Source of the DNA: a virus | Strand: one strand, 5' to 3' | UHGV virus genome: UHGV-0065625 | DNA: 17,531 bases | Shown here: positions 12,584 through 17,531 of the stretch, one piece after another | Numbering within the stretch: the first letter of the stretch is position 1 | How the letters are laid out: each line of letters starts with the position of its first letter | The notes under the pieces: model-generated | What the model saw: the letters and a program-made list of their open reading frames with translations, nothing else | Told to the model about the DNA's origin: nothing | Database searches by the model: none | Program-made: the position numbers and the translations under genes

Positions 12584-13437
12584 ACGAGATCGAAGTGAGT
12601 TCGCCCGCGTCCGTTGTCGCTATCCGTGGGGTGGCCACCTCGGTTAACAGTGCTCTGCGGACTAAATCCAGCCGTGGTTTTGAGAACACCACGCTGGCAG
12701 CTGTTGCGGGTCGGATTGCCAGAAAGCACCGGCTGAAACTGGTGGGCAGCATTGAGTCCATCAGAATCGACCGGGTGACCCAGTATGCTGAAACCGACGT
12801 GGGTTTTCTGCGCCGGCTGGCCAGCGAGTATGGTTATGCAGTGAAAGTGGTCAGTGACCAGTTGATTTTTTCTCATCTGGCCACATTGCGCAGTCAGGAG
12901 CCGGTCAGGCAGTTAAAACCGCAGGATGTGGCCCACTTTTCCCTGCGTGACACCATCAACCGGGTCTATAAATCTGCAAAGGTAAAACACCAGAAAAGCA
13001 GCAGTAAAAAACTGATCGTCTACGAAGCTGATGGTGGTACCCGTGAAAGCGACAAAAAGCTCAAAGGCGGTAAGGTTACCAGCGCTGACTCACTTAAAGT
13101 TAACAGCCGCGTCAGCGACCCGGACAGTGCTCGGATTAAAGCGGATTCAGCACTGGCCAGACATAACGAATACCAGCAGAACGGCTCCCTGACGCTGACG
13201 GGAACGCCTCAACTGACAGCAGGCAACAAAATTGAACTGGTGGGCTTTGGACAATTATCCGGTCCATGGCTGATAATCACTGCCCGCCATGCGTTTGAGC
13301 GTAACAGCGGCTACACCACAGAGCTGGAAGTGGCACGGGGGCCAGTCACAAGAGGGAAAAAACAAAAAACTCAGAAACTCACGGTTTATCACCCGGATGG
13401 CAGTACATCGACGGTGATTAAGGAGAAGAAAAAATGA
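12472..13437 (+). pseudogene. Baseplate hub / late control D-like protein (P2 gpD, Mu gp44-like), 5'-truncated
   Basis: Frame open from 12472 with no start until GTG 12595. Recognisable hub-family similarity begins at ...EGYGTFSIDEIEVS... (about 12559) and continues (TTLAAVAGRIARKHRL, FLRRLASEYGYAVKV). The N-terminal ~75 residues expected for this family are missing. Confidence 0.55.
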
Positions 13438-13946
13438 CTGGTGTCACCCGCCAGGTCGGTACGGTCAGTGCCGTTGATGCCGACAGGGTTCAGGCCCGCG
13501 TTCGTCTGCCTGAATGCGATAATCTGCGCACAAACTGGCTTAACGTGCTGCAGCGCAATACCCAGGATAACAAGGATTACTGGCTCCCTGACGTGGGGGA
13601 GCAGGTTGAGGTGCTGCTCGATGCCAACGGCGAGGATGGTGTTATTCTGGGCGCGGTGTACTCAGACGTCGATAAACCGCCGTTCGGTGATAAAAACGTC
13701 CGGGGCACGAAGTACGCTGATGGCGCGGAGTTCAGTTATGACCGCGCGACCCATACGCTGACGGTCAAAGGAGGTATCGAGCATGTGGTGATCGAGGTTG
13801 CAGTGGGTATTAGTCTGAAAGGGAAAACCATTGATTTGACAGCTGACACTATCATGGTGAACGGCAATCTTGAAATCAAAGGGAGTACCCATGCGACTGG
13901 TAACATATTTGCAGATGGACAGAATTCCAATCATCACTCTCACTAA
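13434..13946 (+). CDS. Baseplate spike / assembly protein V-like
   Basis: 170-codon ORF overlapping the hub stop (ATGA), in the position of the spike gene. C-terminus ends in the His-rich NSNHHSH. Confidence 0.7.
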   Translation: MTGVTRQVGTVSAVDADRVQARVRLPECDNLRTNWLNVLQRNTQDNKDYWLPDVGEQVEVLLDANGEDGVILGAVYSDVDKPPFGDKNVRGTKYADGAEFSYDRATHTLTVKGGIEHVVIEVAVGISLKGKTIDLTADTIMVNGNLEIKGSTHATGNIFADGQNSNHHSH

Positions 13947-13985
13947 TTTTTCAAGTATGTGACTCCATTTCCTCTCCCGCGGATA

Positions 13986-13994
13986 TGATAGAAT
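13986..13994 (+). promoter_or_regulatory. Extended -10 promoter element TGaTAGAAT upstream of the island ORF
   Basis: TG-n-TAGAAT at 13986-13994 followed by an AT-rich tract; no good -35. A GGCGGGGA ribosome-binding site lies 5-6 nt before ATG 14028. Confidence 0.3.
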
Positions 13995-14027
13995 TTTTTA
14001 ATTAACACTAATTTGGCGGGGACTTAA

Positions 14028-14903
14028 ATGCGGTTATCAAGATCCTTATGTAAAGTAGTTGGCGATGTCATTGCTAACTCAGGCTCTCATGCAGCTTTAG
14101 ATACGTTATTTCTTACTTCGGGAGCACCAGGAAACCCTCCGGCAGGATCTCATAGTACAAAATGGAAAGACTGGTTATTTCTTGCAGGGCAAGATCCAGA
14201 TACAGATAGTCTGGCAGTTCTGGGCGGAGTAATTGAGGAGTTTATGGATTTACCTCCAAAAGAAGGTACTCCCGAATATGCAGAATGGAAGGAAAAACGA
14301 GACAGAATTGAAGCTGTGTTACAAGAGAATGGACTTAGATATTATCGTTTTGGTCGAGTGTTGCCTGAAGGCCACATCCCGTCACACAATATGGATTACC
14401 CAGAGACCATAATTACTTATCAACAGCCAGTAATGCCAGAAAAAGTTGAGAACTTACTGGAAAGGCTGGTCAAAGGCTTACAGCGAGCAATGCATCCACT
14501 TACTCATAGGCGAAAAGGAAGCCAGTCATTATCTTTTAGCAATGAATATGACGTGCAAGACCTTCTCCATGCATTGCTCAGACCATGGGTTCAGGACATC
14601 CGCCCAGAAGAGTTTACTCCAAGTTATGCTGGTTCAAGTACTCGAATGGATTTTTTGTTACCTGCGCATAAATTAGTACTGGAAACCAAAATTGTTCGTG
14701 ATCGTTCTCATGCAAAGAAAATCGGCGATGAACTTATTATCGATATAGAGCATTATCGTCGGCACTCTGATTGCAAAAATCTCTGGTGTGTCATCTACGA
14801 TCCGAACCAGCTTATTACTAATTCTGAGGGGCTGAAATCTGATCTTGAGGGGAAGAGAGTTTCTAAAGACGGAGAACTTATCGTCAAGGTTTTCGTAATT
14901 TAA
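14028..14903 (+). CDS. Cargo protein with C-terminal PD-(D/E)xK nuclease-like domain and N-terminal domain of unknown function; candidate defence/abortive-infection effector
   Basis: 291 codons. Motif read from translation: acidic helix NEYDVQDLLHAL (E173/D175), then RMD208FLLP, then LVLE219-T-K221 with 10-residue D-to-E spacing. No Walker motif in the N-terminal ~165 residues. Nuclease assignment is motif-based inference. Confidence 0.6.
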   Translation: MRLSRSLCKVVGDVIANSGSHAALDTLFLTSGAPGNPPAGSHSTKWKDWLFLAGQDPDTDSLAVLGGVIEEFMDLPPKEGTPEYAEWKEKRDRIEAVLQENGLRYYRFGRVLPEGHIPSHNMDYPETIITYQQPVMPEKVENLLERLVKGLQRAMHPLTHRRKGSQSLSFSNEYDVQDLLHALLRPWVQDIRPEEFTPSYAGSSTRMDFLLPAHKLVLETKIVRDRSHAKKIGDELIIDIEHYRRHSDCKNLWCVIYDPNQLITNSEGLKSDLEGKRVSKDGELIVKVFVI

Positions 14904-14957
14904 CAAACGTATCAATAACTCCTTTTTAAATCCCTTTAATATCGTTCTTTTCTTACT

Positions 14958-14973
14958 GGGGCAATACTGCCCC
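14958..14973 (+). other. GC-rich hairpin (GGGGCA-atac-TGCCCC) ending 1 nt before the W start codon
   Basis: Exact 6-bp inverted repeat with 4-nt loop. It occupies the position where a Shine-Dalgarno sequence for W would be expected; no U-tract follows. Confidence 0.35.
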
Positions 14974-14974
14974 C

Positions 14975-15322
14975 ATGAAAACGACCTCAGTATTCTGGCA
15001 ACCGGCTCTGCAGGCTCCCGGCGAAATCGTCCGGGGGCTGGATGATATCCAGCAGTCCATCCAGATCATCCTGCGGACTCCCCGCGGCAGCGACCCGCAT
15101 CGCCCAGAGTTCGGCAGCAATCTGCACCTTTATATCGACTGGCCTGTCGACCGGGCCATTCCGCATGTGGTTCGCGAATCCGTCGATGCCATCAGGCGCT
15201 GGGAACCCCGCTGCCAGCTTATGTCGGTTAAACCCGCCGTCGACGGCGAACATCTTACGCTCCGGGTGAGCTGGAAAGGCTCAGACGGACAACCCCGTAC
15301 TCAGGAACTGCTATGGCGCTGA
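14975..15322 (+). CDS. Baseplate wedge protein W (GPW/gp25 lysozyme-like family)
   Basis: 115 codons containing ...IILRTPRGSDPHRPEFGSNL..., matching the family pattern as I recall it. Followed by an overlapping J-like gene. Confidence 0.75.
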   Translation: MKTTSVFWQPALQAPGEIVRGLDDIQQSIQIILRTPRGSDPHRPEFGSNLHLYIDWPVDRAIPHVVRESVDAIRRWEPRCQLMSVKPAVDGEHLTLRVSWKGSDGQPRTQELLWR

Positions 15323-16416
15323 CAGAACCCGATTTTATTGAACTCGATGCCGATAAAATCACGGCAGAAATGATTGCGAAATATGAAGCGGATACCGGCA
15401 AAACGTTGTACCCGGCACAGGCAGAACGTCTGCTGATAGATCTGTGGGCCTATCGCGAAATGCTGGTCAGGGTGGCGGTACAGGAGGCGGCGAAGCTGAA
15501 TCTGGTCGCCTTTTCCCGGGAGCCGATGATTGATTACCTCGGAGAACTGGTTGGTGTATACCGCCTTCCCGCGCAGCCTGCCACCACCACACTTCAGTTC
15601 TCTGTGGATGAGGCACTGGCCATTGATGTGCTGATCCCGGCAGGCACCCGCGTCAGCGCTTCCGACAGCGTGATTTTTGCCACCGATACAGATGTAGTGC
15701 TGAAGGCCGGTTTGCAACTGGTCAATGCCCCTGCCACCTGTACTGAGCCGGGTACCTCTGGCAACGGCTGGCAACCGGCTCAGGTCAGTCAGCTGCTTGA
15801 TGAGATTGATAACGTTGACCTGCTGGTGACCAATCTGACGGCCAGCACTGGCGGTTCAGAGCAGGAAGACAATGACCGACTCCGGGAGCGTATCAGGCTG
15901 GCCCCGGAGTCATTCACCAATGCCGGAAGCCGTGGTGCATACCGTTTTCATGCCATGGGGGCGCATCCCAGTATTGTCGACGTCGCTGTTCTTTCTCCCG
16001 TTCCCGGTACTGTCGAGCTGTATCCACTGCTCAGCACTGGTCTGCCAGACAGCAGTATCCTCACTCTGGTAGAGAGTTTCTGTTCTGACGAAAAAGTCAG
16101 ACCACTCACTGATACCGTGCGGGCTAAAACACCTGTTCAGGTGGATTACACCATTGAAGCCAGGATTACGATCTATCGTGATCAGGATGCAATGTCGGTA
16201 AAGGACAACGCTAACAGCGCCATACAGAACTGGGTGGCATCACGTGCCGCCACGCTGGGACGCGATATTGTCCCCAGCCAGATTATCAGTGCATTGTCCG
16301 TTTCCGGGGTGTACCAGGTTGAACTGGTGACACCGGCACTGCGGGTGGTTGCAGAAAACGAATGGGCAAACTGTACGGCAATCACTCTTAACGTGACAGG
16401 GGTGTCCGATGGCTGA
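15313..16416 (+). CDS. Baseplate J-like protein (Mu gp47 / P2 gpJ-like)
   Basis: 367 codons, overlapping W at the 5' end and the I-like gene at the 3' end. Size and order match baseplate J proteins. Confidence 0.7.
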   Translation: MALTEPDFIELDADKITAEMIAKYEADTGKTLYPAQAERLLIDLWAYREMLVRVAVQEAAKLNLVAFSREPMIDYLGELVGVYRLPAQPATTTLQFSVDEALAIDVLIPAGTRVSASDSVIFATDTDVVLKAGLQLVNAPATCTEPGTSGNGWQPAQVSQLLDEIDNVDLLVTNLTASTGGSEQEDNDRLRERIRLAPESFTNAGSRGAYRFHAMGAHPSIVDVAVLSPVPGTVELYPLLSTGLPDSSILTLVESFCSDEKVRPLTDTVRAKTPVQVDYTIEARITIYRDQDAMSVKDNANSAIQNWVASRAATLGRDIVPSQIISALSVSGVYQVELVTPALRVVAENEWANCTAITLNVTGVSDG

Positions 16417-16989: not shown

Positions 16990-17531
16990 ATGGCAAATCT
17001 ACCTGAAACCCCACAGTGGGAAGACGGCATCTACCAGATTGAGGTCTCTGACCCCGTTCTGGGCGGGCCTGACGGAATTTCTAACCGTCAGGGTAAACAA
17101 CTGGCCAGCCGCACGCTGTACCTGAAGCAACAGGTTGAAAAAGGCGGGGCTGACCTTGCGAAACACATCGCGGCAGCAGACCCGCATGCCCAGTATGCAC
17201 CGAAAGCCAGTCCGGCATTCACCGGCACACCAACAGCACCTACACCTGCAAATGGCGATAACAGCAAAAAGCTGGCGACGACGGAGTTTGTGGCCAAAGC
17301 ACTTGCGGCGCTTGCAGGCAGCGCCCCTGAGACACTGGATACGCTTAAAGAGCTGGCTGACGCTCTCGGTAATGATCCAAACTTTGCGACTACGGTACTG
17401 AACAAGCTGGCGGAAAAGCTGGCTAAAGACCAGAACGGCGCAGATATTCCTGATCCTGCGCTGTTTGTCAAAAACCTTGGTTTGGGGGAAGGCTCTGCAC
17501 TGCCCGTTGGTGTGCCCGTTCCGTGGCCCTC
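16990..17531 (+). CDS. Tail fibre protein, 5' partial (runs off the window end)
   Basis: Frame open from ATG 16990 to the window end. Contains the conserved fibre segment ...ASPAFTGTPTAPTPA...TTEFVAKALAALAGSAPETLDTLKELADALGNDPNFATTV..., closely matching the equivalent stretch of P2 H-type fibres as I recall it. Confidence 0.75.
   Translation, partial: MANLPETPQWEDGIYQIEVSDPVLGGPDGISNRQGKQLASRTLYLKQQVEKGGADLAKHIAAADPHAQYAPKASPAFTGTPTAPTPANGDNSKKLATTEFVAKALAALAGSAPETLDTLKELADALGNDPNFATTVLNKLAEKLAKDQNGADIPDPALFVKNLGLGEGSALPVGVPVPWP

Follow-up and report, generated by a model that had tools for sequence, protein, structure and literature searches.

A foreign gene between the baseplate spike and wedge genes of a BcepMu-like Escherichia coli prophage encodes a predicted nuclease with a candidate role in anti-phage defence

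What is a kilobase of AT-rich DNA doing in the middle of a phage baseplate operon? The question is raised by a stretch of 17,531 nucleotides from the virus genome UHGV-0065625 (the whole of which is referred to here as the window), in which the genes for the baseplate spike (V) and wedge (W) are separated by positions 13947-14974. A preliminary description of this DNA took the interval for a horizontally acquired moron, inserted between two genes that are normally adjacent and often translationally coupled, equipped with its own promoter-like element and ribosome-binding site, and placed at the kind of locus where prophages carry defence or fitness genes. The window belongs to a BcepMu-like transposable E. 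coli prophage whose head module is of Mu type and whose tail is of P2 type, and which has an invertible tail-fibre segment; the BcepMu-like prophage of strain JNEC-KY202 is located within the pdu operon. Our analysis essentially shows that the inserted segment is a horizontally acquired moron in the V-W intergenic spacer of this prophage. Beyond that, we favour, with a probability of roughly 55%, a reading in which the moron occupies a prophage hotspot and encodes a single-protein, abortive-infection-like nuclease system. The parts of the locus needed to follow the argument are these:

13953-14922, plus strand: inserted foreign segment of 970 bp with a GC content of 0.41, delimited by blastn against the empty-site relative L028.
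14028-14903, plus strand: cargo gene, encoding 291 amino acids (aa), identical to WP_001371051.1 as annotated in JNEC-KY202.
13434-13946, plus strand: V-type baseplate spike gene, the left flank (170 aa; PF04717 Phage_base_V, E = 3.5e-7; phrog_9992, baseplate assembly).
14923-14974, plus strand: retained ancestral V-W spacer, with a box TTAAAtcCCTTTAATATCG at 14926-14944 and a hairpin GGGGCA-ATAC-TGCCCC at 14958-14973.
14975-15322, plus strand: W/gp25-type baseplate wedge gene, the right flank (115 aa; PF04965 GPW_gp25, E = 4e-12; phrog_43, E = 1e-34).

Positions 13947-14974 comprise precisely the DNA between the stop codon of V and the start codon of W, and the claim that its composition is foreign holds far beyond chance. 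GC content is 0.414 over these positions against 0.565 for the rest of the window, and sliding-window values are 0.52-0.59 in the flanks but 0.41-0.43 within the island, which is the lowest-GC stretch of 1028 bp in the window and lies about 7 standard deviations below the other stretches. The cargo gene is the sole long open reading frame (ORF) of the island. Its GC content at third codon positions is 0.332, compared with 0.55-0.70 for 18 phage genes, and its codon adaptation, with the phage genes as reference, is 0.51, compared with 0.65-0.82 for those genes themselves. The sliding-window and codon-adaptation calculations thus confirm that the DNA is AT-richer and follows a different codon preference.

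The ends of the insert were set against L028, the closest island-free relative, which is about 96% identical to the window. Because the blastn alignment to L028 ends at window position 13952 and restarts at 14923, the insert measures 970 bp and begins just after the V stop codon. The interval of the preliminary description therefore does hold foreign DNA between V and W, but it overstates its extent: the true insert is 13953-14922 and the last ~52 bp before W are ancestral spacer. Alignment to related prophages also bore out the expectation that V and W would be adjacent elsewhere, at a distance of 54-56 bp, whereas translational coupling of the two genes does not hold in this phage group, in which a conserved spacer of ~55 bp with a hairpin separates them. 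Neither terminal inverted repeats nor a target-site duplication was found at the insert ends, which show T-rich microhomology only, and the inserted segment carries no recombinase. An apparent AT shift had raised the separate suspicion that the 3′ end of V was transferred together with the island; this was ruled out, since L028 matches the end of V at 96% up to the stop codon. Under the Hendrix definition (quoted in PMC2920897), a moron is inserted between genes that are adjacent in related phages, has a base composition unlike the remaining phage DNA and carries its own transcriptional signals. The first two properties are evident here, and for the third a −10-like element is kept in five contexts, while a −35 element and a terminator were not found.

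The distribution of the insert tells the same story. About 638 of 5426 complete E. coli genomes have this baseplate block, and 18 have the island, in each case at 99% identity or more, such that ~97% of the genomes with the same block are without the cargo gene. It is likewise missing from all four relatives that were inspected, where V and W are 54-56 bp apart, and in more than 60 of 72 related viral contigs nothing but a spacer of ~55 bp separates the two genes, the cargo gene being present among the 72 contigs only in the window's own lineage. The cargo gene is not a conserved structural component of the phage. A reading of its product as a structural protein was rejected on the ground that the gene is absent from most phages with the same baseplate block. 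With the composition different and the gene no conserved structural component, the identification as a horizontally acquired moron stands. A Yersinia enterocolitica prophage has the same gene at the same V-W junction, with 91% aa identity and collinear flanks. Synonymous divergence (dS) between the E. coli and Yersinia copies is ~1.3 for the cargo gene and 0.4-0.8 for W, J and I, and the association is therefore either old or the result of acquisition from diverged donors.

The V-W junction has also received other cargo. In a distant BcepMu-like group (W ~55% identical, flanks of ~61% GC), V and W are separated in five of six contigs by 750-916 bp of DNA with a low GC content (0.45-0.49), which encodes, on the opposite strand, four different proteins of 267, 247, 226 and 208 aa; the sixth contig (L092) has an 88-bp spacer and represents an empty site. 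The 208-aa protein of L093 is a full-length match to PD-T7-4 (E = 6e-62; DUF4145), which is treated in the literature as a known E. coli defence protein with experimental support. The other three genes are unannotated and low in GC:

L088 and L089, 3593-4396, minus strand: V-W cargo gene for a 267-aa protein.
L090, 3621-4364, minus strand: V-W cargo gene for a 247-aa protein.
L091, 3722-4402, minus strand: V-W cargo gene for a 226-aa protein.

None of these three proteins has a Pfam or PADLOC match, and those of 247 and 226 aa have N-terminal hydrophobic segments; we regard all three genes as candidate defence genes. Different and unrelated cargo at one junction between conserved genes is the mark of a hotspot (Rousset et al., 2022) and is what we observe at V-W, which is essentially shown to be a recurrent cargo hotspot in the BcepMu-like phage group. 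Prophage hotspots are known reservoirs of defence systems, as exemplified by the antiviral hotspots of P2 and P4 (Rousset et al., 2022, PMC9122126), and moron hotspots between conserved prophage genes are also known from Burkholderia phages (PMC2920897). Like both of these, V-W is a small site flanked by two conserved phage genes, at which unrelated cargo with a deviant GC content turns over frequently. It differs from the P2/P4 hotspots in belonging to another phage family and in its position, within the late tail and baseplate operon and not adjacent to cos or int. Each V-W cargo is a single gene of ~0.75-1 kb. No description of the V-W junction as a hotspot was found in the literature searched.

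What, then, does the cargo gene encode? Its product is divided into two domains joined by a linker:

14445-14900, plus strand: C-terminal PD-(D/E)xK nuclease domain, PF18742 REase_DpnII-MboI, assigned by Pfam.
14607-14612 (E194/E195), 14649-14651 (D208), 14682-14684 (E219) and 14688-14690 (K221), plus strand: catalytic residues, assigned by alignment.
14028-14369, plus strand: N-terminal domain (N-domain), aa 1-114, five helices and a beta-hairpin (AF2 model, pLDDT 96, pTM 0.89).
14370-14444, plus strand: variable linker, aa 115-139, the least conserved stretch of the alignment (pLDDT <50).

Residues 143-286 match PF18742 with E = 4e-47 (160 bits against a cut-off of 27) over profile positions 2-147 of 150, in keeping with the PGAP name 'PD-(D/E)XK nuclease domain-containing protein'. 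E194/E195, D208, E219 and K221 are invariant among 45 homologues, and the catalytic residues of the predicted nuclease are intact. A search of NCBIfam with the cargo protein gave no match, and in PADLOC only the Argonaute-associated Aga_Helical-REase models match, through the nuclease part alone (profile positions 224-362 of 378). The sole solved relative by sequence, EcbAgaN (PDB 23wq), is again matched in its nuclease part alone (chain residues 231-342). We found 3375 homologues. For so large a family they are unusually uniform, being full-length (~290 aa) and 67-91% identical in Enterobacterales, Pseudomonas, Alishewanella and Burkholderiales, in the Gamma- and Betaproteobacteria. The ratio of nonsynonymous to synonymous divergence (dN/dS) is 0.04-0.09 for the gene overall, with 0.05-0.08 in the N-domain and 0.02-0.06 in the nuclease domain, and dS is saturated; both domains are under strong purifying selection and the linker alone is free to vary. 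Many validated E. coli defence systems carry PD-(D/E)XK domains. A separate 263-aa protein, which has the nuclease domain only in common with the cargo protein (41-46% identity), is present on ~319 mostly conjugative enterobacterial plasmids, is encoded immediately upstream of repE on the one plasmid inspected, an IncFIA/IncFII plasmid of Klebsiella pneumoniae (L105, 3156-3947), and is often mis-annotated as 'malate dehydrogenase'.

The N-domain is presumed to be a sensor, regulatory or adaptor module. Its sequence has no match in Pfam, NCBIfam or the PDB, and an exhaustive search with this domain only returned 324 representative clusters. Among 41 longer proteins that carry it, 22 have the Abi_C (HEPN) domain, six a TIR-type domain, four the same restriction endonuclease (REase) domain and three a PNP/phosphorylase domain, and in single cases it stands behind an AbiJ_NTD3 domain or an Hsp70 fragment. 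The Abi_C versions match the PADLOC AbiJ model via their HEPN part alone; an example is gp40 of ESSI2_ev040, a P2-like phage, encoded directly after the integrase in the accessory end of the phage. This variety of effectors leads us to view the N-domain as a swappable module of single-polypeptide, effector-bearing proteins of the abortive-infection type. A death-fold-like character of the N-domain is weakly suggested. It is tempting to go further and to imagine that the N-domain is a fold of adaptor or sensor type not yet catalogued, perhaps a diverged death-like bundle, which self-assembles to switch on interchangeable suicide effectors (REase DNase, HEPN RNase, TIR or PNP nucleosidase) within one polypeptide and without an NTPase or other partner, with V-W as an unrecognised defence hotspot in a late structural operon; in this full form the proposal is doubtful and is put forward only tentatively.

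The gene appears to bring its own expression signals, of which two can be located:

13986-13994, plus strand: TGATAGAAT, a promoter element of extended −10-like form without a recognisable −35, 33 nt ahead of the ATG.
14018-14022, plus strand: Shine-Dalgarno-like GGGGA, 5 nt before the start codon (GGGGA or GGAGG at this place in other carriers).

In five carriers whose DNA further upstream is unrelated (the E. coli prophage, the Yersinia prophage, an island of Salmonella, a chromosomal islet of Enterobacter and a small integrative element of E. coli), the start codon is preceded at a distance of 29-33 nt by TGATAGAAT, TGATAAAAT or TGATATAAT, which together read TGATA(G/A/T)AAT. The element carries weight because it is conserved among carriers with unrelated upstream DNA, and a conserved TGATAnAAT together with a Shine-Dalgarno sequence in such different flanks means that the gene travels with its own leader. 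As judged from the conservation of these motifs, the cargo gene is probably transcribed independently. No intrinsic terminator was found after it, and late transcription should therefore read through into W.

The gene family occurs in at least 13 distinct contexts, the V-W junction among them, with no recurring partner gene. Its phage carriers include BcepMu-like prophages (at V-W, in E. coli and Yersinia), the phage L019, which has a lambda-type terminase and portal, and the contig L017, in which the homologue is near DarA and ddrB-ParB genes. Two divergently oriented genes, for a 61%-identical homologue and for a Schlafen/AlbA_2 protein of 499 aa, stand in L019 (3989-6789) between the large terminase and portal genes of the lambda-type packaging module, the homologue being on the strand opposite to the late genes; this terminase-portal site is another cargo site inside a late operon. 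In Pseudomonas aeruginosa (L006-L009, 3516-7304) the gene forms part of a fixed four-gene cassette (a 234-aa protein of unknown function, a 483-aa trypsin-domain protein, the nuclease and a 104-aa protein of unknown function), and the cassette occurs in at least four genomic surroundings, which include islands, an integrative and conjugative element (ICE) and a site beside a TraI relaxase. Further homologues are found at the integrase end of a tmRNA-linked Dickeya island, within a Morganella ICE, in a small AlpA/Rep/integrase element of E. coli and on two plasmids, as well as in chromosomal islets beside TIR and DUF4365-TPR genes, two HNH genes, a YobI-type ATPase, toxin and immunity genes of a type VI secretion system, or a type I HsdR and a reverse transcriptase. 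Many contexts without a recurrent partner are the pattern of a self-sufficient accessory gene, of the class concerned with defence or inter-element conflict. The travelling promoter-like element, the recurrence in unrelated mobile elements and the alternative cargo at V-W all strengthen the original placing of this moron at a slot for defence or fitness genes.

An anti-phage defence function of the cargo gene, to which its domain logic, context and site all point, is in our view rather probable. Under the reading we prefer, the cargo gene would probably be transcribed in the lysogen from its own extended −10-type promoter, and the late operon would also read through it, with W-J-I not cut off. 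The N-domain may hold the nuclease inactive until an infection cue is detected or self-association is driven. Once released, the DNase would degrade phage DNA, host DNA or both, and infection by a superinfecting phage would be aborted, protecting the lysogen population and hence the prophage. In this scheme we infer the DNase specificity, the trigger and the abortive outcome, and autoinhibition followed by release is a conjecture.

Several observations weigh against this reading. Neither a ligand nor a function is known for the N-domain, PADLOC has no system model that matches the cargo protein as a whole, and the full-length structural model (pTM 0.48) gives no confident inter-domain arrangement on which autoinhibition could be based. 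No paper that cites the accession and no functional study was found in the literature on the accession and the domain. With regard to expression, TGATAGAAT is the single TGNTANAAT match in the window, where about one is expected by chance in 17.5 kb, and a two-hexamer sigma-70 scan does not call it, there being no −35. The proposed promoter-like element and ribosome-binding site were both located and are conserved in other carriers, but the missing −35 and the chance expectation tell against the former. One carrier, in the Burkholderiales, has the gene among housekeeping genes. Finally, seven of the 18 E. coli copies, all in strains of the enterotoxigenic type, are disrupted by insertion sequence (IS) elements, which could mean that the gene is dispensable or costly. 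The gene is interrupted near codon 49 by ISCro1, near codon 145 by IS100 and near codon 239 by IS2, the last being common to B7A and the 5030xx strains, and the three positions imply at least two independent inactivations. Disrupted copies are found in E. coli ATCC 43896 (L102), strain 503025 (L103) and an IMG/VR sequence (L016).

Other readings of the gene must be set against the one just given. An effector in search of a partner is one of them: the N-domain would be an effector-associated, death-like adaptor that docks the nuclease onto a sensor or nucleoside triphosphatase (NTPase) bearing the same domain, and the gene alone would be inert. The effectors to which the N-domain is fused (REase, TIR, PNP and HEPN) fit the repertoire of the 'EAD principle', named after effector-associated domains (EADs), and some relatives place the N-domain between another N-terminal domain (AbiJ_NTD3 or an Hsp70 fragment) and the effector. 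However, Foldseek with the N-domain returned no death fold and nothing significant; a Pfam scan of 52 N-domain sequences found no family at all, whether EAD, bacterial death-like domain (bDLD), DD, CARD or PYD, its single EAD7 match (E = 0.034) being at noise level; and five helices with a hairpin are not a six-helix bundle. Nor did a homotypic partner come to light, given that the 150 best representatives include no N-domain-NTPase fusion, that the P. aeruginosa neighbours (the trypsin-domain and 234-aa proteins) are without an N-domain (hhalign probability <1%) and that no neighbour recurs in the contexts sampled. We consider such dependence on a trans partner unlikely. The gene might instead serve the phage itself, either as a late lytic nuclease directed against host or competitor DNA or as a toxin-like addiction or competition factor aimed at other mobile elements. 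It is co-oriented with the late operon and lacks a terminator, so that it would receive late transcription too, and many kinds of mobile element carry it, conjugative elements and plasmids included. This is difficult to square with its presence in chromosomal islets without surrounding phage, with a promoter-like element independent of phage regulation, with the L019 copy on the strand opposite to the late genes and with its absence from 97% of related phages, and a phage-serving role is likewise unlikely.

The name of the nuclease family, taken from DpnII and MboI, raises the prospect of a solo methylation-sensitive restriction enzyme that cuts unmethylated GATC-type sites while the host Dam methylase protects the chromosome. 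Most close carriers belong to the Enterobacterales, which are Dam-positive, and a methyltransferase gene does not adjoin the nuclease in most contexts: there is none in the island or the prophage annotation, and one distant context has a small-molecule-type methyltransferase nearby. Against this, close full-length homologues (~70% identity) occur in Pseudomonas and Burkholderiales, which generally lack Dam. Moreover, the N-domain is common to RNase, NADase and nucleosidase effectors and so is unlikely to be a DNA sequence-recognition domain, and the closest solved relative is AgaN, a non-specific effector nuclease. Solo restriction is thus a very unlikely account of the gene. Database titles suggest yet another identity, that of a transposase or mobile-element remnant: the exact protein is on 809 contigs, and NCBI records of the cluster are frequently titled 'transposase', with one fragment called 'IS4 family domain protein'. 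The sole Pfam match is to the PD-(D/E)xK nuclease, and neither a transposase nor a recombinase domain is present; terminal inverted repeats and a target-site duplication are both lacking from the insert; the current PGAP name is that of a nuclease-domain protein; and the real IS elements nearby are insertions into the cargo gene. The 'transposase' title is a misleading legacy name without domain support, and we give this identity practically no credence.

If the cargo protein is an abortive-infection-like nuclease, as we prefer to think, how does it relate to known systems? Its class is known, that is, a prophage moron with a modular Abi-like effector protein at a hotspot, and the N-domain is uncatalogued. 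AbiJ-type proteins (PADLOC AbiJ; Pfam Abi_C HEPN) are built to the same plan, a single polypeptide whose N-terminal module varies and whose C-terminal part is a nuclease effector; in addition, AbiJ-type HEPN domains are found behind the same N-domain in most of the longer proteins that carry it. The cargo protein, however, has a predicted DNase of REase fold rather than a HEPN RNase, shows no Abi_C match, and has an N-domain unlike the AbiJ N-terminus and the Pfam AbiJ_NTD families. AgaN, the nuclease partner of a catalytically inactive long-B prokaryotic Argonaute (BPAN), has a homologous PF18742-type nuclease domain with the same catalytic core. Here, by contrast, there is no Argonaute gene in the window or in any context sampled and no match to the AgaN N-terminal helical region, and regulation must therefore differ from that of AgaN. 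PD-T7-4, a single-gene E. coli system with a zinc finger and a DUF4145/HEPN domain, shares the V-W junction, in the related BcepMu-like phage L093, and the form of a single low-GC gene, but it is an unrelated protein on the opposite strand. Detocs is a three-gene phosphorelay system, and no such companion genes stand beside the cargo protein. The likeness lies in the REase-bearing Detocs variants, in some of which PF18742 is the effector domain (bioRxiv 10.1101/2023.01.24.525353); the domain is also present in CifB according to the literature. As to the bacterial death-like and CARD adaptors (PDB 8ss1, 9frr; bDLD/EAD, Kaur et al., 2021, PMC8195603), the Foldseek, Pfam and profile searches give no support for a relationship, the N-domain differing in its five helices and hairpin and in having no homotypic partner among the P. 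aeruginosa neighbours.

Were the preferred reading true, more than 3000 homologues across the Proteobacteria, now labelled 'transposase' or hypothetical, would make up a widespread family of single-gene nuclease defences. At least four classes of immune effector would be coupled to a new modular N-terminal domain, which would provide a handle on what such modules sense. The baseplate operon of BcepMu-like phages would harbour a defence hotspot, with three more uncharacterised cargo genes as candidates.

The retained spacer deserves separate comment. Its box (TTAAAC(G)CCTTTAATATCG) and hairpin are also present in more than 60 island-free relatives (L001-L004, L022-L086), and the hairpin ends 1 nt before the W ATG, with a predicted RNA folding energy of −15.2 kcal/mol (z = −3.3). 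A 69%-diverged relative (L085) has a different hairpin, GGGGT...ACCCC, at the same place. The W gene has no obvious Shine-Dalgarno sequence, and no known RNA families were found within 13000-15600. Judging by sequence and position, box and hairpin may form a translational control element for the gp25-like gene. All V-W insertions lie upstream of the spacer element adjoining W, and this arrangement, without terminators, would offer a route by which cargo can enter a late structural operon without harm.

Some further features of the window are recorded here. The V gene (13434-13946, compared with L022-L086) is far more variable than its neighbours, being 58-92% identical among phages whose W proteins are 94-99% identical and ranging in length from 170 to 200 aa, which suggests mosaic exchange or diversifying selection on the spike. 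By comparison with the JNEC-KY202 prophage, to which it is otherwise 99.9-100% identical, the window lacks two stretches, at ~8574 and ~12565. The missing 1390 bp comprise the 3′ portion of the major capsid gene, DUF2190 and the beginning of gp436, and the missing 3342 bp comprise most of the tape measure gene, a tail protein gene, X and the 5′ part of D, which is therefore 5′-truncated (ORF 12595-13437). The deletion junctions show microhomology of at most 2 nt, and the same two deletions were found in none of the complete E. coli genomes or IMG/VR copies; either this copy of the prophage is defective or the sequence has been stitched. Lastly, the final 61 bp of the window (17471-17531) match an inverted site ~2.4 kb downstream in the reference prophage, beside a serine recombinase gene, and probably represent one arm of a tail-fibre segment that inverts in the manner of the Mu G segment.

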